Below are positions 3 through 54,995 of a stretch of DNA of 64,000 bases, piece after piece. The translations under genes were made by a program, and so were the position numbers. Numbering within the stretch: position 1 is the first letter of the stretch; the number at the start of each line of letters is the position of its first letter. The stretch is from Candidatus Woesebacteria bacterium (GTDB taxonomy: Bacteria > Patescibacteriota > Microgenomatia > UBA1400 > PJMF01). The notes below the pieces were generated by a model. That model saw only the letters and a list, made by a program, of their open reading frames with translations, did not search any database and was not told where the DNA came from. The stretch is from the NCBI GenBank assembly GCA_017999345.1, contig JAGNLY010000002.1:4425-68424 (forward strand), written 5' to 3'.

Positions 3-227
3 ATTTCGGATAAGGGATATGGTCAAAATTTTAATCACACCACCGGGCATAGTCTTGGATTGTCAATCCATGAACAACCATCAGTTAGTTGGAGCAATAC
101 AACTGATATTATTCCCAACATAATCATCACAATCGAGCCAGGAATCTATATTTTGGGAGAATTTGGCTATCGTTATGAAAATACGGTGTTAATTACAGAA
201 CGCGGGGCTGAAGAACTTACTAACTAG
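3..227 (+). CDS. M24-family metallopeptidase (Xaa-Pro aminopeptidase-like), C-terminal fragment; 5' end outside window
   Basis: Frame open from window edge to TAG 225-227; translation ..NHTTGHSLGLSIHEQP..TIEPGIYI..YENTVLITE matches the C-terminal metal-ligand blocks (GHxxG..HE, EPG, E) of pita-bread fold peptidases. Confidence 0.7.
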   Translation: MSDKGYGQNFNHTTGHSLGLSIHEQPSVSWSNTTDIIPNIIITIEPGIYILGEFGYRYENTVLITERGAEELTN

Positions 228-261
228 GTTTGAGCCTCTACTAGGTGTTACAATAACCTTT

Positions 262-1509: not shown

Positions 1510-1526
1510 ACAACGGAATTTGTTTG

Positions 1527-2468
1527 TTAACTAGTTTTTACCAAATCACTCAAAATTTTCTCAAACATTTTTATCAACTCTTCTTCGCCGTTGTCATTAA
1601 TGAAGTAGGAAAATCCTGGCTGAGTATTAATTTCAATTAGTTGAAAATCACCATTTTTGTCGCGAGCAATATCCAAGCCGGCATATTTCAAACTAAGTTT
1701 TTCGTAAATTGGACTAATAAATTTTTGCAAATCAGCAAGAAGATTTTCATCTTTAACTATGCGTGCGATTGCATTTTCCCAATGTAGAGGACTGAGATTG
1801 CCCACAAATTTCGCAACTTTGGTTTCACCACTCATTATTTTTTCGCCACCGGATTCGTTCGCACCACCAGGCCTGTTTTCACCACCAAGGATGTTTTCGC
1901 CCCCAACCCCTGAGGTATTATCTTTTTGATAAGCAAACATTATTTTTTGGTCATACACAACAACCCGATATTCTTCTTTAATTTCCAAATAATCCTGTGA
2001 AATTAAAACATGATCATAATTCTTTGATTCTTTGTTAAAAATATTGTTTACAGCTTCAGCCACTTCTTGCTTATTTTCGCACTTATAAACATTTATTCCC
2101 CTAGAGAGGCTATTAGCCTTAACAATTAGTGGAAACTTATGCATAGCAGCTATCTCTTCTACCACACTCACATTTGATTTAAATTTGCTAAATCCCTCAT
2201 AGATATCATCAGCATTTGGATCAACAAAACTAAAAGATTTAGGCATGCTAACGGTTTTGTTTAAAAGTAAATAAGAATAAAATTTATCTACTGATATTTT
2301 CCCCACAACTTCATCATTCAAGCCTAAATTATTGGCAATAAATAAATGAGATTTTGTTTTATCTTCATTCAAAAAAACTCTTAAAAACATTTGCGCATCA
2401 TCAATAAGCTCATAGCTCAAATTAAGATTGTCACAAGCCCTTTTTATAATTGAAGTTGTTCTGCTCAT
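1527..2468 (-). CDS. ATP-grasp domain protein (RimK/glutathione-synthetase-like ligase) with Gly-rich insert
   Basis: 313 aa; FPLIVKANSLSRGINV, EYRVVVYD and C-terminal LIEINTQPGF are typical ATP-grasp strands; substrate unknown. Confidence 0.55.
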   Translation of the reverse strand: MSRTTSIIKRACDNLNLSYELIDDAQMFLRVFLNEDKTKSHLFIANNLGLNDEVVGKISVDKFYSYLLLNKTVSMPKSFSFVDPNADDIYEGFSKFKSNVSVVEEIAAMHKFPLIVKANSLSRGINVYKCENKQEVAEAVNNIFNKESKNYDHVLISQDYLEIKEEYRVVVYDQKIMFAYQKDNTSGVGGENILGGENRPGGANESGGEKIMSGETKVAKFVGNLSPLHWENAIARIVKDENLLADLQKFISPIYEKLSLKYAGLDIARDKNGDFQLIEINTQPGFSYFINDNGEEELIKMFEKILSDLVKTS

Positions 2469-2503
2469 ATAATTTTTATGCTAAGCTTATTCTATTGAAA
2501 AAA

Positions 2504-3445
2504 ATGAACAAAAATAAGCGCGAAAGAATTTCATCTTTTATTTATCTAGCTATTAATACAGTTGTTTGGGGAGCTGCGTTTATAACTGTTAAACCCGCTC
2601 TTTCAGTAACTACCCCATACAGGTACTTATTATACAGGTTCATATTCGCCGCTCTGCTCTCCTTACCAATTCTTATTCATTACTGGAAAAAGATAAAAAA
2701 TAAAAAAGAGATTATTAAAAAAATAGTTTCATTAGAACTGCTGGGCACCACTCTTTCACTTGGCTTACTTTATCTTGGGCTAGCTAAAACAAGTGCTATC
2801 GAAACCGGTTTTATCACAACTACCACCCCAATTTTCGTTGTGGTTGCCGGCATTTTGTATTTAAAAGAGAAACAAGAAAAACATGAATGGCTTGGCTTAA
2901 TTTTAGCTTTTATTGGCACCGCTCTACTAACGGCCATACCAATAATCATAAATGGCAGTTCAATAGATGGACTTTCATTAGATGGCAATTTATTAATTGT
3001 GGCACAAAATATTGTGATTGCTATTTACTTTGTGTTAGCTAAAAAGCATTATAAAAAAATTCCAAAATTATTTGTTGCAGCAATTAGTTTTTATGTAGGA
3101 GTTGTTACTTTTCTACTATTAAGTTTATCAGAATTACAATTTTCCTTAGCACAATTGGCAAATGTAATCGTTACAGATTTTTCCAGTTCTTCTGTCTGGA
3201 TTGCTGTTTTATACATGTCAATTTTTGGCTCAATTATTGGTTTAACCACATACATCAAAGGTCAGGATGGCATTGAAGCATCAGAAGCAAGTCTTTTCAC
3301 CTATCTTCAGCCACTGATTTACGTTCCTCTAGGAATGATTTTTCTAAAAGAAGAAATTCACTATCTTCAAATCTTGTCTCTAATAATAATCTTTTTAGGC
3401 GTGTATCTTGCAGAAAGAAAACCTAAGCCACTAAAAAGTAGGTAG
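2504..3445 (+). CDS. EamA/DMT-family transporter
   Basis: About ten hydrophobic helices in two EamA-like halves; ATG at 2504 (MNKNKRER) preferred over track start 2450, which overlaps the divergent gene. Confidence 0.8.
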   Translation: MNKNKRERISSFIYLAINTVVWGAAFITVKPALSVTTPYRYLLYRFIFAALLSLPILIHYWKKIKNKKEIIKKIVSLELLGTTLSLGLLYLGLAKTSAIETGFITTTTPIFVVVAGILYLKEKQEKHEWLGLILAFIGTALLTAIPIIINGSSIDGLSLDGNLLIVAQNIVIAIYFVLAKKHYKKIPKLFVAAISFYVGVVTFLLLSLSELQFSLAQLANVIVTDFSSSSVWIAVLYMSIFGSIIGLTTYIKGQDGIEASEASLFTYLQPLIYVPLGMIFLKEEIHYLQILSLIIIFLGVYLAERKPKPLKSR

Positions 3446-3483
3446 CTCCAGAAAATTCTTTAGTAAAAAAAATAATAAGTTAG

Positions 3484-5340
3484 CTACTTAACAGTAACGC
3501 TTTTTGCTAAATTCCTAGGTTTATCAACATCATAGCTATTCTCCATTGCAATATAGCAAGTTAAAAGTTGAGATGGAATAATACTTGAAATGAAGGAAAA
3601 ATCATCTGTATCAGGAATTTGAATCCATTCATCGTAAAGTGAATTATTAAGTTTTGAAATAGCAATTATTCTTCCTCCCCTTGCCTTTACTTCAGTAATT
3701 GCGTTAAGCATATTTTTTTTGTTTTCATCTTCAGCAACCAAGCACATTACTGGAGTACCCTTGGTAACTAAAGCAATCACGCCATGCTTGAGTTCACCAC
3801 CAGAAAATCCTTCTGCATGAATATATGAAATTTCCTTTAATTTGAGAGCGCTTTCCAAAGTTGCATAATATAAATCACCTCGTCCTAATAAAAATAATTG
3901 ACTAGTATTAACTAATTTTTTAGCAATTTTTTTAATTTTTCTTTGAATAAGATTATCTCCAAACCATTCTGATAATTTATGTTCAAATTCATTAATTTTG
4001 ATTTCTATATCATTAAATTTTGATCCGGATAAAATTTCAGAAATAATCATTCCCCAAAGCACTTGACCCGAAAATGTCTTCGTACTAGCAACTGCTTGTT
4101 CAGGACCAACTTTTAACATAAATGTAAGATCTGACATTTGAGATAATGAACTTGCCGGCATATTTACCACACTAATAATTTTCATTTTGTTTTTTTTCAT
4201 TTGCTCAACAATTTCATTTGTATCTGCCGTCTCCCCGCTTTGACTAAACACTATGCCCACAGAATTTTTATCAAAGAAATCCTGATAAGAATCAGCTTCA
4301 TAGGCAGCAATAGTTGAGGCATAAATACCACTTTTTCTGAGCAAATACGCAGTATTTCCTGCAGCAAAGCTAGCAGAACCACTTCCGAGCGTAAAAACTT
4401 TATTTGATTCTTTAATCATCTTAGTAGCTAGCAAATAATCTTTGTTTGAATCTTTTATCACATTAGAAAGCATTGTTGCCTGTTCATGGATTTCCTTGAG
4501 CATAAAACTACTAAAATCATTTTTATTCATGTTCTGAATACTATTTTTCAGTGACTCTTCGTCTTTTATATGCTTAAAATTCACATCTACTGATTTTTGG
4601 GTTTTGACATCCATAAGACTAAATATACCATTTTGCGAATTAAAAATGGCCAACTGACCAGATTCAATAATTAAATAGCTCTCAATTAATCCAAACAATG
4701 AAATAATATCTGAGGAAAAATAAAACTCGCCCATTGAATTTTTGCCCACAACGAGTGGTGAACCATTTCTTATTGCCATTATTCGACCATCGTTGGTAAT
4801 GCATGCGATAGTATTTCTGCCCAATAGTCTGTTAAAAACTTTTATAAACGAATTTTCATCTAGAGTTTGAATTTCTCCCATCTCTTTTTCTAACAAACCT
4901 ACGATTACCTCGGTATCTGTTTCAGAAATAAAATCATATCCCGTTTTTTCAAGTTCTTGCTTTAGCTCCTGATAGTTATCAACTACCCCATTTTGCACCA
5001 GTGCAAAACATTCATTAGTGGCTAAGTGTGGATGGGCGTTGATTTTTGTTACACCACCATGAGTTGCCCACCTAGTGTGTCCCAAGGCTAAATTTGAGAC
5101 CAAATTTTCGAATTTCCTAGCATCACTAAGTTTTCCCGTTTCTTTTTGAACTTTTATTGCGAAGTTTGGTTTTTGACTATTATTGTTATCTTTTGATGAA
5201 GATTTAGAAAAAGTTGAAAAATTTTGTTCAACCAAAGTTGCAATTCCCCAAGAATCATAACCTCTATACTCAATTTTCTTTAAACCATCAAAAACTTTTT
5301 TATTAGCATCTGCACTAAAACTTGCATAAATTCCACACAT
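3484..5340 (-). CDS. glmS: glutamine--fructose-6-phosphate aminotransferase
   Basis: 618 aa; N-terminal MCGI (Ntn nucleophile Cys), GHTRWATHG, two SIS domains, C-terminal ..KSVTVK. Confidence 0.95.
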   Translation of the reverse strand: MCGIYASFSADANKKVFDGLKKIEYRGYDSWGIATLVEQNFSTFSKSSSKDNNNSQKPNFAIKVQKETGKLSDARKFENLVSNLALGHTRWATHGGVTKINAHPHLATNECFALVQNGVVDNYQELKQELEKTGYDFISETDTEVIVGLLEKEMGEIQTLDENSFIKVFNRLLGRNTIACITNDGRIMAIRNGSPLVVGKNSMGEFYFSSDIISLFGLIESYLIIESGQLAIFNSQNGIFSLMDVKTQKSVDVNFKHIKDEESLKNSIQNMNKNDFSSFMLKEIHEQATMLSNVIKDSNKDYLLATKMIKESNKVFTLGSGSASFAAGNTAYLLRKSGIYASTIAAYEADSYQDFFDKNSVGIVFSQSGETADTNEIVEQMKKNKMKIISVVNMPASSLSQMSDLTFMLKVGPEQAVASTKTFSGQVLWGMIISEILSGSKFNDIEIKINEFEHKLSEWFGDNLIQRKIKKIAKKLVNTSQLFLLGRGDLYYATLESALKLKEISYIHAEGFSGGELKHGVIALVTKGTPVMCLVAEDENKKNMLNAITEVKARGGRIIAISKLNNSLYDEWIQIPDTDDFSFISSIIPSQLLTCYIAMENSYDVDKPRNLAKSVTVK

Positions 5341-5960
5341 AATTATCCTTTTTGTGTACTAAAAATTATAAAATTGAAAAAATCGGCAAAACCAACAAAA
5401 TGATTGGTTTACCGCTTGATATCACTATTCACTCTATTAAAAATGTTTCCATTTCTTTTTTATAAATAGTGTTGATTGGACTATCAAAATGCCCAGGAGG
5501 TCTCCGTAGATTCTCGAGATTACGTGAATAATTTAGCAAATATACTTCATTATTCGGCAAAACTCGGTTCGATCGCTTTTACTTTTTCCAGTTTTAAAAA
5601 TTGATTCAATTATTTTTGAGTCTTATTTTTCTTATTCTGTAAAAAAACTAAAGCATCCTCCTTCCTCGTATCCCTTTTGTAAAATTATTTTTTTGTTTCT
5701 ATCAAAATTTGCGATTATTCGCACTCGCAGTAAATTAAAAATAGTTATTACAAATTAGGGCCACACGCTCAGATTTTTATTATATATTTAGTCCTTTCAT
5801 TTAAAATACTTATTTAATCCTACATTTGTCTTAAGCAAAAAACAAGTTTTATTGATCTTTTTCCTCTGTATCAAAAACTAATTTGTGATACAATATCAAT
5901 CTTATACGCAAAGGTATTTTTTATACCTGCTGCGTTTTATGAAAACACAGGGTCTAAAAT

Positions 5961-6308
5961 ATGAAAAAAGGTATTCATCCAAACTGGACAAATCAAGCTC
6001 AAGTTACTTGTAGTTGTGGCGCACAATTCACTATTGGTTCAACTCTAGATACATTAAAAGTAGATATTTGTAGCAAATGCCACCCTTTCTTTACAGGAGA
6101 AATGAAATTTGTTGACAGACAAGGTCGTGTCGATAAATTTATGAAAAAGATGCAAGTTGCTCAAACAATTCAATCAAAGAAATCAACCAAAAAATCTGCT
6201 AAAACAGAATCTGCTGAAGAATCAAAAACATACAAAGATGTTTTACTTCAACAACAAAATGTCCTCAAGCAAGTTGCTAAAACAAGAAAAGCACCAGCAG
6301 AAGCATAA
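5961..6308 (+). CDS. rpmE: 50S ribosomal protein L31 (zinc-ribbon type) with long C-terminal tail
   Basis: [23 protein letters not shown] is the L31 signature; about 45 extra Lys/Ala/Gln-rich residues at the C-terminus. Confidence 0.9.
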
Positions 6309-6408
6309 CTACTTTTCCTAGTCGTTTTCTTTGTATCTCACCTCATGGTCGGTTATAATTGAAAATAAATAAACTTGCGCGAAGCAAAAGCTGAGCGCAA
6401 TCTTTCAT

Positions 6409-7362
6409 ATGACAAACCCTTACCAAATCCAAATTAGCGAACTTGAAGAAAAGATTTCTGAATCTACAAAGTTATTAAACGATCCAGAAATGAAGGATCT
6501 TGCGGAAATGGAGATTGATAGTCTTAAATCACAAAAGCAACAACTTGAAGATGCAGCACTTCAATATGAACAAGGTCAAGAGGCTTCAGAAGAGTTTTCA
6601 GAAGAAAAAGTGAATTGTATTATTGAATTCAGACCTGGCGCTGGTGGTGATGAAGCAAAAATTTGGGCAAATAATGTGATGAGAATGTACATTAGATTTT
6701 GCGAAATTATAAACCTTAAAATTGAATATATTGATGAGTTGGTAATCAAAATTTTAGGCAAAACCAGATCTATGGAAGAACTCCATCCAGATGGCAAAAA
6801 CTACATCACTGCCTACGAATTATTCAAATATGAATCTGGAGTACATCGTGTCCAAAGAGTTCCAGAAACTGAGGCTCAAGGAAGAATTCACACCTCTACA
6901 TGTTCAGTGGCTGTTTTGCCAGAGATAAACTCAAAAGAAGTCGAGATTAAAACCGAAGATATCGAGTGGCAATTCATTAGAGCCAGCGGAGCTGGTGGTC
7001 AAAGTGTTAACAAAACTAGTAGTGCTGCTCGCTTGTTTCATAAGCCAACAAAAATCATGATCGTTTCTAAACAAGAAAAAAAACAAGAACAAAATCGAAA
7101 AATTGCACTAGAATTACTTAGATCGCAACTTTGGGAAATCCAAGAAGAAGAAAGACTCAAGGAAATTGGTGTCGCCCGTTCTGCAATTGGTCGAGCTCAA
7201 CGTGCTGAAAAAATTAGAACTTACAACTATCCGCAAAATCGTATTACCGACCATAGGTCAAAACAATCTTGGCATAATTTACCACTGGTTTTGGACGGTG
7301 ACTTGAATAAGCTATTTATTGAGCTTCACCCTGCTCTTGATCAGATGTATGCTCTGGAATAA
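6409..7362 (+). CDS. prfA: peptide chain release factor 1
   Basis: SGAGGQSVNKT (GGQ motif) and VQRVPETEAQGRIHTS (RF1-type P-x-T tripeptide region); 317 aa, N-terminal domain shorter than usual. Confidence 0.9.
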   Translation: MTNPYQIQISELEEKISESTKLLNDPEMKDLAEMEIDSLKSQKQQLEDAALQYEQGQEASEEFSEEKVNCIIEFRPGAGGDEAKIWANNVMRMYIRFCEIINLKIEYIDELVIKILGKTRSMEELHPDGKNYITAYELFKYESGVHRVQRVPETEAQGRIHTSTCSVAVLPEINSKEVEIKTEDIEWQFIRASGAGGQSVNKTSSAARLFHKPTKIMIVSKQEKKQEQNRKIALELLRSQLWEIQEEERLKEIGVARSAIGRAQRAEKIRTYNYPQNRITDHRSKQSWHNLPLVLDGDLNKLFIELHPALDQMYALE

Positions 7363-7380
7363 TGGCATAAAATCTTGATC

Positions 7381-8643
7381 TTAAATTTCCTCAATTGCCC
7401 TAAGCAACTGCTCATCTTCTGGAGTATCTGGATTTGCTTCAACTTCTATATCAACTGGAATTCCTGTTTCATGGATCCACTCCCCACCTGGAAGCAACCA
7501 CTTGGCAACAGTTACGTGTAAACCACCACCATTTGAGAGACCAATTCTGTCTTGAACAGTACCCTTGCCGAAACTATTTTCACCAATCAGCTTGGCTCCA
7601 AGTCTATCTCTAACAGCACCAGCTACGATTTCTGATGCGGAAGCACTACCTCGATTAATCAAGACTTCTAGCTCCATATCCTTAAGTCTGGCTTGTCCTC
7701 TTGCAGAGTAGTCTTGCTTGGTCAAACGATCTTGCTGACTAACCACTACGCCATCTTCAATAAACTCACTAGACATATCAATTGCTACATCAAAAAATCC
7801 ACCAGGATTATTTCTGACATCAAGAATTACTCCATTTAAAGAATCTTTTTGGGCTAATATTTCGTTAACTACTAAATCCCATTCAGCGTCAGTTCGCTCT
7901 CCAAATCTAGATAGTTTAATGTGAGCTACTTTTTTGCCAGCGTGTTCAACAAACTCCATTGTTACAGACTCAACAATTATCTCTCCACGCTTGATAGTGA
8001 TATCAAAAGGCTCATCAACCCCTTCTCTCACCAACGATAATGTCACTTCGGTATCTTTTGGACCACGAATAATATCTACAGCCTTAGTTAAAGACCACTT
8101 AGAGCTATCTTCATCTAGATCTTTTGCGATGTCCTTTACTCTAACTATATAATCACCTGCTTCTACCCCAGCCAAAGCTGCTGGACTGCCATTTAATGGC
8201 GAGACTGCCGCTAGGAAACCATTGATATAACCCAGCTCTATACCCACGCCATAAAAAGATCCTGCTAAATCTTGACCACTTCTTTCGTTTTCTTTTGGTG
8301 GTAAATACATAGTATATGGATCACCCAATGCAGAAGTCATACCTCCTATTGCGCCATCAACCATTTTACCGGCATCAATTTTTTCTTGATCAATATATCC
8401 TGACTCAAGAATAGACCAAACTTCCCAAAAAGTACTAAAATCAACATTTTCTTTGCCTTCAGGCACAGCTGCTTCTTTGATTCTTGAAAGTTGAGATTGA
8501 ATATTTTTATTGTCGGATGCTGCGTTGAGTTTGGAATATCTGTCCAAATATTGAGTTTTATGTTCGGCATAAGCTCCTACGAAAAGTATTAGCAAAACTG
8601 CAAATACATTTCCTACATAACTGAGCTTAATTTTTTTAATCAT
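7381..8643 (-). CDS. carboxyl-terminal processing protease (peptidase S41) with PDZ domain
   Basis: N-terminal membrane anchor, PDZ-like GVEAGDYIVRV, S41 blocks VILDVRNNPGG and NRGSASASEI. Confidence 0.85.
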   Translation of the reverse strand: MIKKIKLSYVGNVFAVLLILFVGAYAEHKTQYLDRYSKLNAASDNKNIQSQLSRIKEAAVPEGKENVDFSTFWEVWSILESGYIDQEKIDAGKMVDGAIGGMTSALGDPYTMYLPPKENERSGQDLAGSFYGVGIELGYINGFLAAVSPLNGSPAALAGVEAGDYIVRVKDIAKDLDEDSSKWSLTKAVDIIRGPKDTEVTLSLVREGVDEPFDITIKRGEIIVESVTMEFVEHAGKKVAHIKLSRFGERTDAEWDLVVNEILAQKDSLNGVILDVRNNPGGFFDVAIDMSSEFIEDGVVVSQQDRLTKQDYSARGQARLKDMELEVLINRGSASASEIVAGAVRDRLGAKLIGENSFGKGTVQDRIGLSNGGGLHVTVAKWLLPGGEWIHETGIPVDIEVEANPDTPEDEQLLRAIEEI

Positions 8644-41694: not shown

Positions 41695-42555
41695 TTAGAT
41701 TTTTAAAATCAAATTTAACTTATTTTCAGGCACTGCTAAAATATTTTGAAAACCAAAAATCTCGTGAGTTAAAGGTCGATAATTTTTGAGTGGATACAAT
41801 CCATGAGGCAAAATTCTATAAAATGAATAACCTGGCAAAAGATTTACAAAATCTTTGAAGAAATTTCCCGAAAAAACATTCATTTCGTTAAATTCAAATT
41901 GAATAAAACCAATTTTTTGATCATTAATTAATTGTTTTGCTCCCTGCAAAACTTGGAGCTCGTGCCCTTCCGTGTCTATTTTAAGAAAATCAATCATTTT
42001 TATTTTTTGTTGGCGAACAAATTCATCCAAAGTAATTTTTCTCACTAAAAATGATTGTGCTTTTTGTCCATGAAGTTGATTAATCACCGTTTTATTTAGT
42101 GACGAAAGTTGCGAAGTTGGTTGAGTTTTTTTTAGCTGCGTGTCGTCTGCAAAATCCCAAAGCTTAGCAGTACCTTTTTTATTACTAACTGCAAAATTAA
42201 ACTTCAAAATTCTTTTGTTTTTTCTAAAAATATTAGTTAATTTTTCAAAAGTTTTTGGATGAGGCTCAATTGCATAAATTTTTGCTTTTTTAAAATATTT
42301 GTACCCATATACATCCGTATTGGAGCCTACATCAAAGATTATTTTTGGGTTCCATTTTTGGGAAAGTTGTTTCAAAAGATAATCTTCACCGGTTGCCTCA
42401 CTAACTTCTGAATTTAAGATTCCCAATCCTCGCAATGAAAGTTTAAACAGGTGCTCGTTGAACTTATAAAAAATAGGTCTGCAAAAAATCCAGCGATAAA
42501 ATTTAAAAAAAGTATTCATAAAAATGATTTTGGCGTCAATTTTTGCTGATGCCAT
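41695..42555 (-). CDS. FkbM-family methyltransferase
   Basis: IFDVGSNTDVYG (SAM-binding loop), IDFLKIDTEGHELQVLQGA typical FkbM block. Confidence 0.8.
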   Translation of the reverse strand: MASAKIDAKIIFMNTFFKFYRWIFCRPIFYKFNEHLFKLSLRGLGILNSEVSEATGEDYLLKQLSQKWNPKIIFDVGSNTDVYGYKYFKKAKIYAIEPHPKTFEKLTNIFRKNKRILKFNFAVSNKKGTAKLWDFADDTQLKKTQPTSQLSSLNKTVINQLHGQKAQSFLVRKITLDEFVRQQKIKMIDFLKIDTEGHELQVLQGAKQLINDQKIGFIQFEFNEMNVFSGNFFKDFVNLLPGYSFYRILPHGLYPLKNYRPLTHEIFGFQNILAVPENKLNLILKI

Positions 42556-48419: not shown

Positions 48420-48770
48420 TTATTCTATTTTATTCAGCAAAAAAACTTGCAAATAAGCTTTGTAAAAAGGAAGAGACTCTAAAACAATTCTGCTTGCCCC
48501 ATCAACAGATCCTATAAAGGCAATTGTCGCAGAAGACGCAATTGATAGCCTGCTTAAAGGTAATTTATCGATTATTTCAAATACTGGCTGAGCATAAATT
48601 GGTAATAATTCGGGATTAATCAATGCAACTAAAAATAAGTATGTCGCTATTGCTCCAGCAACATATTCTAATTCTGGTCTAATTTCATTTCTCAGCTTTT
48701 GTATGGCATCAAGTATCTCTGAATTTGTTGAAGGATTGTGCTTAAATTGACTTTCTTCATCGATGATCAT
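48420..48770 (-). CDS. hypothetical small protein
   Basis: 116-aa ORF in a co-directional string, 12 nt before the next ORF. Confidence 0.45.
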   Translation of the reverse strand: MIIDEESQFKHNPSTNSEILDAIQKLRNEIRPELEYVAGAIATYLFLVALINPELLPIYAQPVFEIIDKLPLSRLSIASSATIAFIGSVDGASRIVLESLPFYKAYLQVFLLNKIE

Positions 48771-49344: not shown

Positions 49345-49920
49345 CTATTTAATAAAGACTTCTTTGAGTACCTCCACTCTATGTTTGACTTCTGCCCTCA
49401 CTTCATCAAAAAATATTTTCTTGTTAAAATCATGCTCGATTTTTTTTGACACCCATTCTCTACATTCTTCAAAATTCTTATTTTCTGGCAAATGCATCCA
49501 AGTAAAATGTACAAAGAAATCTGTTGTTATGTGTGCTAAGGCATCTGCGGTTGCCATCACTTTACCTTCTATTTGAGTTGGAATAAACCCGTCTCTACAA
49601 GAATGTGGAGCAATCACCTCCTCTAAGATTTCTTTAATCTCTTCTCTGCTGTATCCTGCTTTTTCTAGTACTTGGCTAGATTTTTCTACAGTAATTGAAG
49701 CATGCTCAGCAGAGTTACGATGAACAAAAGCATCGCCAAAATCATGAAGCCATGCGCCAGCTACAGATATATCTGTCTTTGCTCCAAACCGATTAGATAA
49801 CTCCTCAGTTTTTTTTGCAACAACGGGAACGTGGTTCTTCCACATCCATTTACCAAACCACTCTTGAGAGTTTTCGTACGCATCCTTAACTAATTCAGCT
49901 ACTTTGGTATGTTTATTCAT
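49345..49920 (-). CDS. HD-domain phosphohydrolase
   Basis: NHVPVVAKK..AWLHDFGDAFVH..(H...HD...D pattern). Confidence 0.8.
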   Translation of the reverse strand: MNKHTKVAELVKDAYENSQEWFGKWMWKNHVPVVAKKTEELSNRFGAKTDISVAGAWLHDFGDAFVHRNSAEHASITVEKSSQVLEKAGYSREEIKEILEEVIAPHSCRDGFIPTQIEGKVMATADALAHITTDFFVHFTWMHLPENKNFEECREWVSKKIEHDFNKKIFFDEVRAEVKHRVEVLKEVFIK

Positions 49921-49970
49921 AACTTAATTCTATCAGAGAAAATGGTCAGGTAGACGATCCCAAATCTATT

Positions 49971-50234
49971 TCAATATTGGTCATGTCTTACTAAGTCAAA
50001 AAAAACATAAGCGTCATCCTCTTTAATTGCCAATGCTCGCAAATCTCCTTCTATTCGAATAGCATACTGACTGGATCTCTCGCCCTTTAATCTATGCAAA
50101 CGTAATCCCACATGATATGGATTTTCTTTAAATCTTTTAAATTGTTTTCTAAATGTTTTGTCTAAAAGAGGGTTTTTATTTATAAATTTTGATATTTTTT
50201 TCTTAAATGCTGAAGTATAAATAACTTTTGTCAT
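49971..50234 (-). CDS. type II toxin, RelE/ParE superfamily
   Basis: 87 aa; ..NPYHVGLRLHRLKGERSSQYAIRIEGDLRALAIKEDDAYVFFDLVRHDQY fits the RelE/ParE beta-sheet pattern; 4-nt overlap with the upstream small ORF. Confidence 0.75.
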   Translation of the reverse strand: MTKVIYTSAFKKKISKFINKNPLLDKTFRKQFKRFKENPYHVGLRLHRLKGERSSQYAIRIEGDLRALAIKEDDAYVFFDLVRHDQY

Positions 50235-50488
50235 AGAGAATCAAAAAACTCATCAACATCATCCATTTCATGAGTTTTTCCCAAACGATGATCTTCTAAA
50301 GCCTTTAAACCATTTTCTTCTGTTTCCTTGCTCATTTTAAAAGTTGGAACTTCATTTTTCAAAATTTCTTCTGATGCTTTACTTATAAAAAAACGAATAG
50401 TCTTTGGTAGATTGTAACCAAATTGAGAACCATAATTTTCCAAAAGAGCAGCTTCTTGAGTTGTGAGAGATAATTGAACTTTAGTCAT
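50231..50488 (-). CDS. antitoxin partner of the RelE/ParE-like toxin
   Basis: 85 aa, acidic C-terminus, ATGA overlap with toxin, palindromic operator in its promoter. Confidence 0.6.
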   Translation of the reverse strand: MTKVQLSLTTQEAALLENYGSQFGYNLPKTIRFFISKASEEILKNEVPTFKMSKETEENGLKALEDHRLGKTHEMDDVDEFFDSL

Positions 50489-50552: not shown

Positions 50553-50620
50553 TCAGGGACTAGTGAATGATGTTAGAACCTATTTTTCCTCAAGTTGGGA
50601 TGTGGGCTTGGGCTTATAAG
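50553..50620 (-). repeat. tRNA-Trp-3'-portion-like repeat, copy A (most decayed long copy)
   Basis: Minus strand ..GGTTCTAACATCATTCACTAGTCCCTGAA; aligns with copies C/D; a half-copy gatttagaactattttt abuts it at 50528-50544. Confidence 0.65.
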
Positions 50621-50643
50621 TATAAAAAAATAGCCTCGCAAAG

Positions 50644-50964
50644 TTATTTTATTAAAAAATAAAAAAGTAACAATATAGTTCCAAAAATTAAATAAAAAAT
50701 TCCCCAATTAACTGCTTCTTTTCCATTAACTTCCTTCATTGGACCATTATCAGAAATCATCACTAATGACTTTTTAGATGTTATTACTAAAATTCCTAAA
50801 ATAAAAATGCTAGTTGCAGAAATAAGTAAAGAAAAATAACCTTCAAAAAGTGCTGAGTAAAATAATGTTGAAAATATTCCAACCACAAAGATAGTTGCTT
50901 GAGTTTTAAACTCTTTAACTTCAAAAATTCTTTTTACAATACTTGGAAAATCTCTATAAATCAT
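50644..50964 (-). CDS. hypothetical small membrane protein (3 TM)
   Basis: 106-aa ORF, three hydrophobic helices. Confidence 0.5.
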   Translation of the reverse strand: MIYRDFPSIVKRIFEVKEFKTQATIFVVGIFSTLFYSALFEGYFSLLISATSIFILGILVITSKKSLVMISDNGPMKEVNGKEAVNWGIFYLIFGTILLLFYFLIK

Positions 50965-50983
50965 TAATAAAATAATAGCATGA

Positions 50984-51883
50984 TTAAGGCATATTTAATT
51001 TCTTAATCTCTTTAACTTTTCCATCACCAATACCTACGTAAGACATCTCTAATAATTTATTGACCAATTCTTTTAGCTCAATTTTACCAGTTGATTCTTC
51101 TCTAATTTTTTCAGCCGCATCATCTAAAATATTATCTCTTAAAGATGGAAAAATTGCTTTAACCATATCAAGGGCTATGCGCTTTGAATAACTTGCATCT
51201 TTTAGAAAAATTCTAAAAACATTTTCTAAAGCCAAAATAGCATTTTTCGGAGAGTTTTCTTTTATAGCTCTCTCTAAAAATCTTGTGGAGACAGTAATAA
51301 TTTGATCTAAGCCAAAAGGTGTATCTGGAAAACAATACTTTTCACAATAAAGTTTAAAGGCTTCAGCAGCTCTTTCAAATTTAGCTTTTTCAATCAAAGA
51401 AATCAAAGCAAAAACGTCTGTTGATTTTTGTTCGCTAAGATCTAACAATAAAACTAAAATCTGACTACTCAAATTATTAATTTCATCACTAGGTGCAACT
51501 TTGGAAACAAATTCTAGCAAACTCAACATGTCTCTAAGACAAATTAGTTGTGCTGATTGATTTTCTACTAACGCCCCATCCCAATATTCATTTCTTTCTT
51601 TGGCTTCTTTTTGTCTTGCTGAAACTGGATAATGATCTAAGAGCACTTGAATTGCATTTTTAAAATGCTTAAACGCTACTTCAGATTCACTTTTTAGAGC
51701 CGCTGACTTACTAAGTACTAAAGCAAGTCTAGAATACTCGGCATGTTTTTTTCTTGATTCTAAAGAATTCGGATGAGAAGGATTTAGCTCAAATAATGCT
51801 TTAATTGCTTCGTCAGCTGCTTGAGATGAATCATCTTTTTTTACATGTTTGTTCCAAATTTTTTGCTCCTGAGATTGTGACAT
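50984..51883 (-). CDS. hypothetical all-alpha protein
   Basis: Track start 51952 lies inside a terminator stem; ATG 51883 sits 7 nt after TGATATAAT (51891-51899), giving 299 aa. Confidence 0.55.
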   Translation of the reverse strand: MSQSQEQKIWNKHVKKDDSSQAADEAIKALFELNPSHPNSLESRKKHAEYSRLALVLSKSAALKSESEVAFKHFKNAIQVLLDHYPVSARQKEAKERNEYWDGALVENQSAQLICLRDMLSLLEFVSKVAPSDEINNLSSQILVLLLDLSEQKSTDVFALISLIEKAKFERAAEAFKLYCEKYCFPDTPFGLDQIITVSTRFLERAIKENSPKNAILALENVFRIFLKDASYSKRIALDMVKAIFPSLRDNILDDAAEKIREESTGKIELKELVNKLLEMSYVGIGDGKVKEIKKLNMP

Positions 51884-51925
51884 ATAAGTGATTATATCAA
51901 AATAAACTACCACAAAAGATGAAAG

Positions 51926-51958
51926 CCCAAGATGGAACTCTTGAGTTTCCATCTTGGG
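51926..51958 (-). terminator. intrinsic terminator after the 153-aa ORF
   Basis: Perfect 12-bp inverted repeat cccaagatggaa / ttccatcttggg with 9-nt loop; T-rich tract follows on the minus strand. Confidence 0.6.
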
Positions 51959-51980
51959 CTGTTAATTGAATATTATTTTT

Positions 51981-52442
51981 TTATCTGCTAGTCCATATCG
52001 GACCAACAGACATTGAGGCCTGTCCAGACATGTGCTTCCAGATTAAGGTATCAAAGTTGTCGTAGGATGATAGGATGCAGGAAGAACCTTCTTCGCTATG
52101 CTCATCCATTGTGCTTGTGTCTTTTGAAATTACACAATACGTTCCGCCATTATTATGGACATAAGATTTATCACCCTGATGTCCGATAGATGGGGAATCC
52201 CCTTCAATGTAGAAACCAATGAAAAGGTAGGTAAACATGACCTTTTCCTTGGTGACCTCGTACACTTTGATTTGCGCAGTATTAATCTTGGTTAGCTCCC
52301 AATTAATAGGGTAATACCAAGAATAGATTGCACTTGCTAAAACCAAAAGTGCACAAACTGATATTAAGATCTGCAGCCAATTCTTATGAAGAAAGGCTAA
52401 AGAATTTCTTAATACCATCTTCAATGACTTAAAGCTAAACAT
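51981..52442 (-). CDS. hypothetical membrane-anchored protein
   Basis: GGAGG 5 nt before ATG 52442; single TM (ILISVCALLVLASAIY) then about 100-aa extracytoplasmic domain with 2 Cys. Confidence 0.55.
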   Translation of the reverse strand: MFSFKSLKMVLRNSLAFLHKNWLQILISVCALLVLASAIYSWYYPINWELTKINTAQIKVYEVTKEKVMFTYLFIGFYIEGDSPSIGHQGDKSYVHNNGGTYCVISKDTSTMDEHSEEGSSCILSSYDNFDTLIWKHMSGQASMSVGPIWTSR

Positions 52443-52629
52443 TTTGTCCTCCAGGACTCTGGTGCTACCAGAAAAATAGTCGGTGACAGTGCGCGACACT
52501 GTTTCTTATCCTCAAATTTATTTTAATTAAGAATAAAAAACAGTGTCGCTAATAATATTCAATTTTTAACGTGCATGCTCCAAAATTTTGATAAATATAT
52601 TATCAGTTTTAAAGCAAATGCAAAGAAAT

Positions 52630-52658
52630 ATTATATCAAAATATATCAATAATGTCAA
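52630..52658 (-). promoter_or_regulatory. consensus promoter TTGACA-N17-TGaTATAAT
   Basis: Minus strand TTGACA = 52653-52658, 17-nt spacer, TATAAT = 52630-52635 with TGA immediately upstream; lies directly next to repeat copy B. Confidence 0.6.
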
Positions 52659-52670
52659 TTGTTATAGGTC

Positions 52671-52705
52671 GTTGCAGGGACTAGTGAATGATTTTTGAAC
52701 CTATT
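52671..52705 (-). repeat. tRNA-Trp-3'-portion-like repeat, copy B (short)
   Basis: Minus strand GGTTCAAAAATCATTCACTAGTCCCTGCAAC; left flank identical to that of copy E, right part like copy A. Confidence 0.65.
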
Positions 52706-52724
52706 AAGTAGAGCAATGTGTTTC

Positions 52725-52754
52725 TTGACATCATAAGTTCTAAAATTATACAAT
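52725..52754 (+). promoter_or_regulatory. promoter TTGACA-N18-TACAAT
   Basis: TTGACA 52725-52730, TACAAT 52749-52754; ATG 52763 follows 8 nt later without SD. Confidence 0.4.
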
Positions 52755-52762
52755 TTGAATAT

Positions 52763-53014
52763 ATGAATAGCAAAGAACTGGCTAAGGTCAAAAAACCATT
52801 CGAACCAAGAGGATATTCAGTTGTGGCAAATGACCCGCTAGCACAATTATTGATTAATGAAACTTTAAGAGATTCAGGCTCGGGTACATTGGAAATGTAT
52901 GACCATGGGGAACTGATTCAATTTATGCTGCCGGCGAAAAGCATTGCCGAGCGAGATGCTTACATTATCATGCTTGAAGCATTGTATAAGATTCGTAAAA
53001 ATAAAAATCAATAA
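52763..53014 (+). CDS. hypothetical small protein
   Basis: 83 aa from ATG 52763 (track GTG 52718 would start inside the promoter); convergent with the 110-aa ORF. Confidence 0.45.
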   Translation: MNSKELAKVKKPFEPRGYSVVANDPLAQLLINETLRDSGSGTLEMYDHGELIQFMLPAKSIAERDAYIIMLEALYKIRKNKNQ

Positions 53015-53088
53015 TCTGCCCAACTACTTTCAGAATATATCAATAAGCTGCTGAATAAAACCATAAAATAGAGCACATTCGGCTATGT

Positions 53089-53421
53089 TCAAACTTTTTC
53101 TTTTGCAATTGGCGTACTATCAGCTGACCAGGAATAACCATATTTATCAATCTTTAGTTGGAGCTGTCTAAACCAAGGCATACAAATTCCATAAGCATTA
53201 AAACGAACGACTTCACCACTTTCAAGAGTTACCTCAAATCTACCATCTTCCTCTACCTTTGTGACTTTTCCTTTGGCAAGAAGATCAGTTGAATTTTGCA
53301 ACCTAGCTTCAAGCTCTACTTCAGCATCTATAGTAGCGACACTCCTAACAAAATCTCTGCGTTTCCTCGCATTTTCCATTTTGAGTTGCTCTGCCTCACC
53401 TTTGTCTAAATTTTCAAACAT
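53089..53421 (-). CDS. hypothetical small protein
   Basis: 110-aa ORF, AAGGAG 5 nt before ATG. Confidence 0.55.
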   Translation of the reverse strand: MFENLDKGEAEQLKMENARKRRDFVRSVATIDAEVELEARLQNSTDLLAKGKVTKVEEDGRFEVTLESGEVVRFNAYGICMPWFRQLQLKIDKYGYSWSADSTPIAKEKV

Positions 53422-53518
53422 TTTTCTCCTTATTCTTAATTGCTCTGAAATTAGTATACATCAACAAATAATCTTTGAAAAATAATTAGAAATTATGATA
53501 GGAAGACCTATTTATATG

Positions 53519-53600
53519 AAAAAATTGGTGATTTGCAGGGACTAGTAAAGGATGTTCGAACCTATTTTTCCTCGATTTGGGAGGTGGTTTTAGTCTTATA
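53519..53600 (-). repeat. tRNA-Trp-3'-portion-like repeat, copy C
   Basis: Minus strand ..ACCACCTCCCAAATCGAGGAAAAATAGGTTCGAACATCCTTTACTAGTCCCTGCAAATCACCAATTTTT; near-identical to copy D. Confidence 0.7.
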
Positions 53601-53634
53601 GTTTTGAACTATTTAATAATGTTTAATGAAAACA

Positions 53635-53937
53635 TTATTTTGGTGCTATGCGCCGAATATCGTTTAACAGTGTCATTAAAGCAACTGAGTCACTCCAATC
53701 CGCTGCGTTGACAAGATTTATAATATGATCTAACTTTGATGGATCTAGTCCATTATATACTGGCAATTTTTTAGCATCTACTAATCTAGCAATCATTTTT
53801 TTCTTAGCTCCTTCAAAATCATTATCATTTTTGAGTCTTACAGGTGTTAAAACATTTCCAAGTAAATCATCTAACTCAAACTGTGTTGAACCCCTATATT
53901 CATTATTCTCAGTCAATTCAGAACGATATGATTTCAT
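53635..53937 (-). CDS. hypothetical small protein
   Basis: 100-aa ORF preceded by TGATATAAT (53970-53978). Confidence 0.5.
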   Translation of the reverse strand: MKSYRSELTENNEYRGSTQFELDDLLGNVLTPVRLKNDNDFEGAKKKMIARLVDAKKLPVYNGLDPSKLDHIINLVNAADWSDSVALMTLLNDIRRIAPK

Positions 53938-54016
53938 AAAATGATATTTTCCATTTAGTATGCAAGTAAATTATATCATTTCTGAGAATAAAACTAAAAA
54001 ATAGATATCTATAGGC

Positions 54017-54096
54017 AAAAATTGGTGATTTGCAGGGATTAGTGAAGGATGTTCGCACCTATTATTATTCTAGTTTGGAGGTGGTTTTAGTCTTAA
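54017..54096 (-). repeat. tRNA-Trp-3'-portion-like repeat, copy D
   Basis: Minus strand ..ACCACCTCCAAACTAGAATAATAATAGGTGCGAACATCCTTCACTAATCCCTGCAAATCACCAATTTTT; contains CTCCAAA, identical to the Trp anticodon loop. Confidence 0.7.
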
Positions 54097-54132
54097 AATA
54101 ATTATGTTTAAATTCTGTTCTGTAGACGCAAA

Positions 54133-54157
54133 AGTGCCTCTCATTTAGAGAGGCACT
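54133..54157 (-). terminator. intrinsic terminator after the 69-aa ORF
   Basis: Perfect 10-bp stem agtgcctctc / gagaggcact, 5-nt loop, TTT on the minus strand. Confidence 0.6.
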
Positions 54158-54181
54158 GAAAACATTGCAAACTGAGTTTAT

Positions 54182-54391
54182 CTATTTTTTCTTTATGATG
54201 TTGAAAACTACTACGCCAACTATTCCAGCAGTAAGACCTGCTAAAAATGAAACTACAACCAATGGAAAAAAACCCATGGTTAGTTTCGGCACGACTAAAT
54301 GCTGGTAGCAAAAATTCAAACCTATGTTAACGAGCATAGACAATGAAAATGCTAACCTGTGGCCACGCATATCTTTGAACAAGTCTCTCAT
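54182..54391 (-). CDS. hypothetical small membrane protein (2 TM)
   Basis: 69 aa, GGAG 6 nt before ATG, two hydrophobic helices, KKK C-terminus. Confidence 0.5.
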   Translation of the reverse strand: MRDLFKDMRGHRLAFSLSMLVNIGLNFCYQHLVVPKLTMGFFPLVVVSFLAGLTAGIVGVVVFNIIKKK

Positions 54392-54573
54392 TTGATTCTC
54401 CAGTCAAATTATGGCTTTCCACTTCCTTCTCGTGAAACAGCTCTAAAAATCTCCCAAATTAATGAGGAACTTTATAAGCTGTTCCAATAAACTCTAGTTT
54501 TTAATGTGCATTAGAAATCAAACTCTTTTTCACCAGCAAATGGAGATAAGAATTTTTATTCTACTAATAGACT

Positions 54574-54602
54574 ATTATATCAAAATATATTGGATAAGTC
54601 AA
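54574..54602 (-). promoter_or_regulatory. consensus promoter TTGACT-N17-TGaTATAAT
   Basis: Minus strand TTGACT = 54597-54602, 17-nt spacer, TATAAT = 54574-54579; homologous to the 52630-52658 promoter. Confidence 0.6.
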
Positions 54603-54614
54603 TGTTATAGGTCG

Positions 54615-54634
54615 TTGCAGGGCCAGAGGGAATC
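54615..54634 (-). repeat. exact 20-nt copy of the tRNA-Trp 3' end (copy E)
   Basis: ttgcagggccagagggaatc identical to 54799-54818, same orientation. Confidence 0.9.
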
Positions 54635-54772
54635 TACGATTCGCCAACTATTTATATTTTAAGTCAGTTGGCTCACATGCATTTCCCAGGTGCCTTCACT
54701 TCGTTACGGCACTTGGTGTCAGAACTATGCTTCGCAAGGGTTAAATTTCCTATTGACCCCATAAAATAAAAT

Positions 54773-54790
54773 AGAACCCATTCGGGTTCT
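54773..54790 (-). terminator. intrinsic terminator after tRNA-Trp
   Basis: agaaccc attc gggttct hairpin; on the minus strand followed by ATTTTATTTTAT. Confidence 0.6.
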
Positions 54791-54801
54791 CTTTTACTTT
54801 G

Positions 54802-54872
54802 CAGGGCCAGAGGGAATCGAACCCCCGTCAAAGGTTTTGGAGACCTCTATTCTACCGCTAAACTATGGCCCT
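54802..54872 (-). tRNA. tRNA-Trp (anticodon CCA)
   Basis: AGGGCCA-TA-GTTT-AGCGGTA-GAAT-A-GAGGT-CTCCAAA-ACCTT-TGAC-GGGGG-TTCGATT-CCCTC-TGGCCCT-G; cloverleaf folds by hand; CCA end not encoded. Confidence 0.9.
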
Positions 54873-54995
54873 ACTCTTGATATCAAGCATTTTATCATTT
54901 TAAGTTCCAAAAATCCTAGATAAAGTATGTTTTTGAGAAATAAGCCAATAAATTAAAAACAAAAAACTTAAAAAATTACATAACCACAAGATAAT

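Follow-up and report, generated by a model that had tools for sequence, protein, structure and literature searches.

Small integrase-less cassettes arrayed at the tRNA-Trp locus of Patescibacteria, probably built by accretion with a serine integrase acting in trans

Patescibacteria (the candidate phyla radiation, CPR) have genomes of about 1 Mb, in which few mobile elements are recognised. In streptococci, cis-mobilizable elements (CIMEs) lie beside, or in place of, an autonomous integrative and conjugative element (ICE) or integrative and mobilizable element (IME), and accretion-mobilisation with a tyrosine recombinase is proposed for them. The ssrA islands of Dehalococcoides use a serine recombinase, are stacked in tandem, measure 10–30 kb and each carry an integrase of their own. 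Their site-specific integration at the ssrA gene, which encodes transfer-messenger RNA (tmRNA), is stated in one published account (PMC3146451). The additive flexible genomic islands of Alteromonas are anchored on tRNA genes, their cassettes differ between near-clonal strains, and a repeat marks each addition (PMC4898812). At the tRNA genes of Prochlorococcus, newer tycheposons push older ones into the island (bioRxiv 10.1101/2020.12.28.424599). Here, an array of small cassettes downstream of a tRNA-Trp gene is described in a stretch of 64,000 nucleotides from a Candidatus Woesebacteria bacterium (the whole stretch analysed, hereafter the window). The cassettes are separated by a ~35-nt repeat, named X. 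I put at roughly 0.55 the joint probability that the region from about 49.94 to 54.80 kb is a site-specific recombination hot spot anchored on the 3′ end of tRNA-Trp and that its integrase-less, tRNA-anchored array was built by accretion with a serine integrase acting in trans. A first-pass annotation, made from the sequence, could match the combination to no described system. It can be matched to CIMEs, additive genomic islands and tycheposons, from which the array is distinct by its tiny modules, a non-tRNA 35-bp separator, an integrase gene that spans attL, apparent one-armed conservation and the host phylum. Literature searches for a CPR cassette system yielded none, and the array is described in no paper of the library searched.

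Following the direction of the tRNA, the order is the tRNA with its core CCCTGCAA, a hairpin and an element Y that ends in the core, a 69-aa cassette, X-D, a 100-aa cassette, X-C, a 110-/83-aa cassette, X-B, a 172-/322-/106-aa cassette, X-A, a toxin-antitoxin cassette, a possible decayed X and an HD-domain gene (Table 1). The tRNA-Trp gene had been placed on the minus strand at the end of the array, and ARAGORN and Rfam agree. X is a site of ~35 nt, aAAATAGGTTCnAACATCCTTCACTAGTCCCTGCAA (logo from 46 unique junctions). Four copies (A–D) were found in the 64 kb against 0 expected by chance, all of them at the tRNA-Trp locus and on one strand. C and D, which had been noticed as near-identical, are 87% identical over 90 nt. 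The core consists of the last 5 nt of the tRNA and 3 nt of its trailer, and is identical to the end of X. At the 46 unique junctions, conservation ends right after the core CCCTGC(AA), and the right flanks are not conserved. The tRNA-Trp genes of the clade end in CCTGC in 22 of 22 cases, nearly all in CCCTGC. Thus, the edge of the X block is exactly how tRNA-Trp genes end, which was counted for site-specific recombination at the core. Every module ends in X, a conserved 35-bp duplex site that has in common with the tRNA end only this core. The last open reading frames (ORFs) of many intervals stop at a TAG or TAA inside the 5′ AAATAGG of X.

The first-pass annotation had described a repeat family of five copies and had read A–D as decayed copies of the tRNA-Trp gene from the anticodon loop to the 3′ end. 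A–D are real, co-oriented and confined to the locus, while the fifth copy, E, is not in the family; it is the end of Y and, as annotated, an exact 20-nt copy of the tRNA end. The 8-nt core is indeed common to X and the tRNA, but outside it the alignment of five long-form X copies with tRNA-Trp is no better than that of shuffled sequences (p = 0.06–0.29), and the Rfam tRNA model searched with Infernal had no match in A–D even at E ≤ 10. Thus, the descent of X from a decayed piece of tRNA-Trp is not supported. X as a tRNA pseudogene or fragment was rejected on these tests; the sole signal came post hoc, from a match (p = 0.004) between the X box AGGTTCGAAcaTCCTT and the T arm of the tRNA-Tyr next to it. 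The T-loop-like box GGTTCGA in X is real but is better read as a protein-binding motif than as a tRNA relic. In classical tRNA islands, the repeats are tRNA copies of ~15–50 nt; here, 20 nt are identical in the end of Y and only 8 nt in X. Additive islands and tycheposons resemble this locus in the tRNA-anchored hot spot, in cassettes that differ between near-clonal strains and in the repeat at each addition. They differ from it in their partial-tRNA separators, kilobase scale and usually a tyrosine recombinase, where this array has a non-tRNA 35-bp site.

X does not fold. The folding energies of both strands lie between 0 and −2.4 kcal/mol (z-scores between +0.6 and +1.1), and neither a single-strand fold nor a dyad symmetry around the core was found. 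The lack of a single-strand fold is expected of a duplex site, and makes X unlike an integron attC, a repetitive extragenic palindromic (REP) element or an IS200 end. An attC-like or hairpin site was ruled out by these values, with the sequence of X nearly invariant and without a match in Rfam. One could take X for a dispersed repeat of the REP type or a miniature inverted-repeat transposable element (MITE), or for tRNA pseudogenes, with no role in recombination; it is short, repeated and intergenic and has the T-loop-like box. Its confinement to one locus and one orientation, the lack of a fold or a tRNA-model match, and a similarity to tRNA-Trp that is not significant speak against this, so that a dispersed REP/MITE was ruled out and the explanation as a whole is extremely improbable. 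The end of an IS200/IS605 element or of a palindrome-associated transposable element (PATE) was also rejected, as X has no hairpin and the sole Y1_Tnp found has different hairpin ends of its own. This is an IS200-like Y1 transposase gene (143 aa) in L023 (1330–1872), ~50 nt past an X core, with GCGACCTTACGGTCGGGG hairpins at both ends, and it is an independent insertion unrelated to the array. The same locus has strongly diverged X-like sites at ~845–870 and 175–205, in which the spacing ATAGGTT..(~17 nt)..CCC(T)G is kept. A phage or plasmid origin was rejected: BLAST of 53500–54900 against phage and plasmid collections matched tRNA-Trp genes only, and the X pattern had no match in IMG/VR.

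Is this array common in related Patescibacteria? Sixteen related loci were fetched via the 437-aa neighbour gene, and eleven metagenome contigs were added by a collection-wide pattern scan. The 437-aa protein was considered as a hidden recombinase and rejected, since its conservation does not depend on the presence of an array and a homologue is called a GlcNAc transferase by one source. With the X profile, 53 copies were located; they are spread over 15 non-redundant loci, each of which has between 1 and at least 10 (the L012 array is cut by the locus edge, and its copy number is a lower bound). The copies lie on one strand within every locus and are downstream of, and co-oriented with, tRNA-Trp in 11 of the 11 loci that show the tRNA. 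Contigs of 0.5 and 1.2 Mb have one X hit locus each in the pattern scan, so that the repeat is confined to tRNA-Trp rather than dispersed. Two large contigs (L008 and L009) have tRNA-Trp and no X. The intervals between X copies have a median of 845 bp (range 94–4362) and mostly contain one or two ORFs, and 70 of the 79 ORFs of at least 60 aa are co-oriented with the tRNA. Among the proteins encoded in the cassettes are six or seven of the Fic/SoFic type, toxins of the YafQ/HigB/Gp49 type paired with NikA/CopG/HTH antitoxins (HTH, helix-turn-helix), GNAT enzymes, a RecQ helicase resembling PsyrT, a helicase resembling DpdF, GIY-YIG, an M48 peptidase, and glycosyl- and acyltransferases, besides many orphans. 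This cargo is accessory and partly defensive. Between genomes, X is ~87–91% identical against ~73% for core genes, which argues for selection on the site itself. The array of L012 contains, at 4307–7810, about three tandem copies of a 1732-bp unit made up of X, Y, a 121-aa ORF, a second X and a 147-aa ORF. The assemblies L003, L004, L006, L015 and L049 end 0–500 nt from tRNA-Trp, as is expected if the sampled strains differ downstream of the tRNA.

Sibling strains were found by exact-protein look-up, and their flanks are 96–99% identical to those of the window. L034 (GCA_964496685.1) lacks exactly the 184-bp unit that contains Y, and its tRNA..CCCTGCAA is directly joined to CGACCTATAAC. It also lacks exactly the 497-bp cassette of the 100-aa ORF, and a hybrid site is left with a D-type X and a C-type right flank. 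In L037 (JGI 3300005138), the tRNA core adjoins another cassette start, which leads into a different cassette of ~330 nt; X-A and the distal part in common with the window come next. The locus is thus variable among close relatives, and the proximal cassettes vary while the distal ones are common among the siblings. Modules also recur in other company. The toxin-antitoxin cassette of the window lies between two X copies in L022 and L025 with different neighbours, and a related toxin-antitoxin pair is found in L024, L028 and L025, each time with different neighbours; the similarity extends from right after the core into X. What is gained, lost or reshuffled is the whole module, with its boundaries at the core. 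A 116-aa orphan gene (48420–48770), located beyond the recognisable array of the window, is a single X-bounded cassette in L012 (7877–8233). Its DNA is 87% identical to a copy in L005 (5914–6294), against ~73% for core genes. The variable zone may reach as far as the FkbM-type methyltransferase gene at 41695–42555, which is conserved.

Three families of cassette starts (type 1, type 2 and the hairpin-Y segment) occur both on the tRNA end and on X, in different genomes. Type 1 begins with ATCACCAATTTTT.. (consensus A[AT]CA[CT]CAATTTTT[GT]CCTATA) and is the start found on the tRNA core of L037. Type 2 begins with CGACCTATAAC.. (consensus CGACC[CT]ATAAC, with a consensus promoter-like site), and sits after X-B and E in the window, after X in L022 and L007, and after the tRNA itself in L034. 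The trailer hairpin of the tRNA lies after X five times in L012 and twice in L028. The joints of the alternative starts are always at CCCTGCAA, the sole sequence, 8 nt in length, that is common to the left arms of the tRNA and X. Types 1 and 2 are short 5′ modules, directly after the core, that are common to unrelated cassettes; they may be portable promoters or part of the recombination site.

A candidate enzyme was found in relatives. Via an 80%-identical homologue of the 437-aa neighbour gene, loci were reached in which a large serine recombinase (LSR) of 515 aa is encoded directly beside tRNA-Trp (the L042, L046 and L048 population). The L042 LSR has the Resolvase, Recombinase and Zn_ribbon_recom domains with an intact YARKSS motif, and its last ~20 codons run antisense through the tRNA-Trp gene. 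The same antisense overlap was found in L051 (GCA_054039875.1) and L052; these LSRs are 56–58% identical to that of L042, the three range from 515 to 521 aa, with the same domains and intact motif in each, and the layout at tRNA-Trp is the same. The elements end in an X variant 5.8–7.9 kb from the tRNA, with no X inside. In L042, the end lies 7.6 kb from the tRNA and reads AATAGTAAGTTCCAACATATTCAACTAGTCCCTGCAA, which is followed by a 153-aa cassette and a canonical X; the X-like far ends of L051 and L052 lie 5.8 and 7.9 kb away. Besides the LSR gene, the element (6–8 kb) contains genes for a repressor of the LexA/S24 type and a Cro-like HTH protein, small ORFs, and several genes that run in the direction of the tRNA; a DnaD-like protein is annotated in the L051 version. 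Its right arm beside the tRNA, C[AG]TTAGTA[CT]GAT, is conserved among the elements and is not found in cassette starts. Since an LSR element at this same tRNA ends in an X variant, the array looks like accretion beside an integrative element.

The layout of L042 (tRNA, LSR element, X variant, 153-aa cassette, X) is of the CIME type, and the window array uses the same sites. As in CIMEs, there are integrase-less modules with att-type bounds, arranged in tandem at one site, for which mobilisation by a neighbouring recombinase is proposed. The array differs from CIMEs in that the modules are 0.1–4 kb in length with one or two genes, reach a count of at least 10 in one array and occur in Patescibacteria, that the recombinase would be of the serine and not the tyrosine type, and that there are no conjugation genes. 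LSR elements and prophages of the phiC31, Bxb1 and A118 type are comparable in the ~515-aa Resolvase, Recombinase and Zn-ribbon enzyme abutting the target in the relatives, in the short att sites with a small shared core, and in a 7-bp motif whose position in the attB arm differs by 5 bp from that in the attP arm. Unlike in these, the integrase ORF here runs through attL into the tRNA gene, conservation is limited to the left arms, one target serves many times over and most modules are integrase-less. An integrase at the tRNA-proximal end was found only in the 6–8 kb elements of the relatives. In L057 (9001–10559), the same layout is found at a tRNA-Gln gene, which is overlapped antisense by an LSR with 53% identity to the tRNA-Trp enzyme; the right arm, CATTAGTACGAT, is the same as well. 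Genes for a Type I restriction-modification system and CBASS-like genes (cyclic-oligonucleotide-based anti-phage signalling; CD-NTase, Cap15) lie within 8 kb of it. A fifth LSR homologue has no tRNA adjoining. The family has 576 matches in Patescibacteria at E ≤ 1e-20 and may retarget between tRNAs.

In serine integrases, the recombinase domain binds near the centre of the site and the zinc-ribbon domain binds a distal 7–9-bp motif, whose distance from the centre is 5 bp shorter in attB than in attP (PMC3783163). Counted back from the end of the core CA, GGTTCGA begins at 24 nt in the tRNA and at 29 nt in X, in the left arms only. This 5-bp shift is a hallmark of attB and attP, and thus the T-loop-like box is plausibly a protein-binding motif that mimics the tRNA T-loop, bound by the zinc-ribbon domain of the integrase. 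The following route may be proposed. The tRNA end, together with the identical 20 nt of Y, would be the left arm of attB and X the left arm of attP, with the crossover within CCCTGC(A). The enzyme would be an LSR of the family encoded on the relatives' 6–8 kb element, and would also act on the X sites of cassettes. An integrated element that excises via a more distal X would carry the intervening cassettes away; if it later excised via its own X, it would leave them behind at the new tRNA (accretion-mobilisation). The newest modules would then lie beside the tRNA, and older ones would be pushed distally and decay. Such pick-up and deposit would also duplicate stretches that contain the native hairpin-Y segment, which would account for the five Y copies inside the L012 array. 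The position of the L042 element upstream of an older cassette implies that the enzyme would tolerate right arms that are not conserved.

As first annotated, no recombinase was found in the window: its ORFs of at least 150 aa have no Phage_integrase, Resolvase, DDE or IS110-type domain in Pfam. Nor was a recombinase domain found in the rest of the contig (in all, 77 of 84 kb were covered; JAHZTO010000361.1, GCA_020049755.1), among the top 25 families of either of two scans, one of 71 cassette ORFs and one of 48 flank ORFs of the related loci, in 10 large cassette ORFs scanned singly, in a crude motif scan of 543 frames or in an NCBIfam scan of the orphans. In about 30 loci, no Phage_integrase domain lies beside the arrays. 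A lone 90-aa protein of the HTH_17/MerR type with an excisionase-like fold is encoded in L039 (15822–16094), on the same contig, ~13 kb beyond the window-side tRNA cluster, with no recombinase adjoining. Since the locus has no integrase, the window array would currently be passive unless an element supplies the enzyme in trans. The central idea of the first-pass annotation, repeated site-specific capture of tiny integrase-less cassettes at tRNA-Trp with the catalyst in trans, survives the refutation tests named there. Of the three conditions, a dispersed repeat and an invariant locus do not hold, and tRNA similarity no better than that of shuffled sequence holds only for X outside the core.

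The catalyst in trans might instead belong to a dedicated integron-like system, in which a non-LSR chromosomal recombinase encoded elsewhere (for example, a tyrosine recombinase or a domesticated Xer) excises cassettes and re-inserts them as circles at the X core or the tRNA end. The size of the cassettes, their one or two co-oriented ORFs and the stop codons inside the site would fit, as would the conservation of the left arms alone, which suits enzymes that tolerate variable partners, and the existence of both X-by-X and tRNA-by-X products. A shared core of 6–8 bp is typical of tyrosine recombinases. However, no such enzyme was found in the ~30 loci or the 77 kb of contig, X has neither a dyad symmetry around the core nor an attC-like fold, an LSR element ends in X at the same tRNA in three relatives, and the 5-bp shift fits LSRs specifically. 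I consider this system unlikely. The likeness to sedentary chromosomal integrons and to clusters of attC sites lacking integron-integrases (CALIN) is limited to small, mostly single-ORF, co-oriented cassettes with a 3′ site that often overlaps the stop codon, common toxin-antitoxin cassettes and a proximal end that is the most variable. In contrast to integrons, the array has neither IntI nor an attI/Pc platform, X is unstructured and keeps its sequence where attC keeps its structure, and several cassettes carry their own promoter-like starts where integron cassettes are mostly promoterless. Thus, the integron-like layout noticed at first is a superficial likeness.

Each cassette might also be the decayed stump of a serially integrated, integrase-bearing island whose mobility genes were deleted. 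Complete LSR elements at this tRNA with cargo beside X, and the documented pushing of older elements by serial integration in tycheposons, are in line with this. However, none of the 71 cassette ORFs and no array DNA is homologous to the backbone of the LSR element, whose genes have no homologues among the array cassettes, and no fragments of an integrase or repressor were found. The cassette starts abut the core without the right arm of the element, and the siblings differ by whole cassettes. Such decay is quite improbable. The Dehalococcoides islands are alike in their site-specific integration at the end of a small-RNA gene, but they are larger and each has its own integrase, in contrast to the tiny integrase-less modules of this array.

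Several points weigh against accretion driven by a serine integrase. Canonical LSRs need two recognisable half-sites and recombine attP with attB only, while the right flanks of X and the tRNA are not conserved at the 46 junctions and a conserved right arm occurs only in the integrase elements. Repeated insertion beside the tRNA needs an enzyme that accepts the tRNA core joined to any cassette start. The X variants that terminate the integrase elements are detected only weakly by nhmmer (3.5e-5, 9e-5 and 2e-3). Loci with an array but no integrase element have no LSR or other recombinase either; with none in the window or the contig, the link between enzyme and site comes from three relatives. 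All of the evidence derives from metagenome assemblies. In L034, 1.1 kb of the window (51950–53044) is replaced by 15 unrelated bases (L034 4274–4286) with no bounding repeats. This loss, which takes X-B, the 172-aa ORF and half of the hairpin at 51924–51960, is an illegitimate deletion.

The two exact losses in L034 are equally explicable by homologous recombination. The X-by-X loss of the 100-aa cassette had its crossover within a 21-nt identical stretch of 90-nt repeats that are 87% identical, and the Y unit was lost between identical 20-nt repeats. It might be that no site-specific enzyme acts now, that X is the scar of a former attR, and that the array changes by RecA-dependent unequal crossing-over and uptake from relatives with the tRNA and X as anchors. 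The 1732-bp tandem triplication in L012 and the DprA and RecR encoded in the window are compatible with this. On the other hand, the joints of the tRNA with cassette starts have only 8 nt in common with the X joints, conservation stops exactly at the core without fading, and X is better conserved between genomes than the core genes. I give homologous recombination as the sole process little credence, and accretion with a serine integrase in trans is preferred.

The element Y deserves separate mention. Its final 20 nt (54615–54634) are the copy E of the tRNA end. The 5′ 18 nt of Y pair with its own 3′ 18 nt, which equal the 3′ end of tRNA-Trp. Copies outside the window were found by nhmmer in L004, L005, L012 (five) and L028 (two or three). 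Among these, 95% of the cells are paired, against 37–49% with slid partners; the variation keeps G-U pairs, and a small UGCGAAGCA hairpin holds two compensatory pairs. This G-U-tolerant variation with the compensatory pairs suggests that Y is probably a structured RNA. No match was found by ARAGORN or in Rfam, and Y as tmRNA or another known RNA was rejected on this ground; its 5′ part recalls the 5′ end of tmRNA by eye only. Y and the hairpin form a cassette of their own, the 184-bp unit that L034 lacks, and the identical 20-nt end would serve as an attB-type arm like the tRNA end.

The remaining features of the window are listed in Table 1. As the first-pass annotation stated, the cassette ORFs have no recognised family; none matches a Pfam family, save weak RelB/ParE-like hits for the distal pair. 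It also reported extended −10 or full TTGACA-N17-TATAAT promoters, and two promoter-like sites of the sigma-70 type with the full consensus TTGAC(A/T)-N17-TATAAT and an upstream TG were indeed found, after B and E. The possible sixth X corresponds in position to the X after the same toxin gene in L025; taken alone, it is not significant (p = 0.14).

Table 1. Features of the tRNA-Trp locus in the window, listed from the tRNA outward.
Feature	Position	Strand	Basis or remark
tRNA-Trp (CCA) gene; 3′ end is the proposed attB left arm	54801–54872	−	ARAGORN; Rfam tRNA, 66 bits
Core CCCTGCAA, common to tRNA end and X; proposed crossover region	54799–54806	−	Junction comparison
Hairpin and T-run 3′ of the tRNA (native trailer); proposed attB right arm; first part of the Y unit	54773–54790	−	Terminator-like site
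Y, ~145-nt RNA-like element	54616–54760	−	nhmmer E = 8e-38
Promoter-like TTGACT-N17-TATAAT with TG, part of the type-2 cassette start CGACCTATAAC	54574–54602	−	Promoter scan
Cassette 1 ORF, 69 aa, hydrophobic, without family	54182–54391	−	ORF list, Pfam
X copy D, long form	54029–54096	−	nhmmer E = 6e-12; repeat family
Cassette 2 ORF, 100 aa, orphan; whole cassette 497 bp	53635–53937	−	Pfam, sibling comparison
X copy C, long form	53532–53598	−	nhmmer E = 7e-14
Cassette 3	52718–53421	mixed	110-aa ORF 53089–53421 (−) and convergent 83–98-aa ORF 52718–53014 (+)
X copy B, short form	52672–52706	−	nhmmer, repeat search; followed by type-2 start
Promoter-like site after X-B, 12/12 consensus	52630–52658	−	Promoter scan
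Cassette 4	50644–52499	−	ORFs of 172 aa (51981–52499), 322 aa (50984–51952) and 106 aa (50644–50964)
Hairpin internal to cassette 4	51924–51960		Hairpin scan
X copy A, long form; core mutated to CCCTGAA	50551–50616	−	nhmmer E = 2e-12
Cassette 5, toxin-antitoxin pair	49971–50488	−	85-aa RelB/NikA-like antitoxin and 87-aa ParE/YafQ-like toxin; weak Pfam hits
Possible decayed sixth X; would mark the distal end of the array	49942–49971	−	Position homologous to X in L025
HD-domain gene, next beyond the array	49345–49920		Also the chromosomal neighbour beyond the integrase element in L052

It is possible, though doubtful, that the array is a working cassette-exchange system of Patescibacteria on one-sided att sites, and not debris beside an integrase element. 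A serine integrase would then read the left arms only, the tRNA or Y end as B and X as P, and each product of B and P would again be usable B and P sites. As part of the same tentative view, Y might act as a portable landing site, or as an RNA that pairs by its 5′ end with the att sequence. If true, single-gene satellites could be stacked, excised and re-sorted without limit on such sites, with no need for an integron integrase. If one conserved arm per site is really enough for the integrase, its specificity would be unusually relaxed for an enzyme of the serine type, which would be of interest for directionality and for genome-engineering tools. How Patescibacteria exchange accessory and defence genes is poorly understood, and this locus offers a concrete, testable route, with a defined 35-bp site, a defined target, a candidate enzyme family and pairs of strains that differ by single cassettes. 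Dozens of orphan one-gene modules travel with the SoFic, PsyrT-like and DpdF-like genes, and they are candidates for new functions in defence or host interaction.

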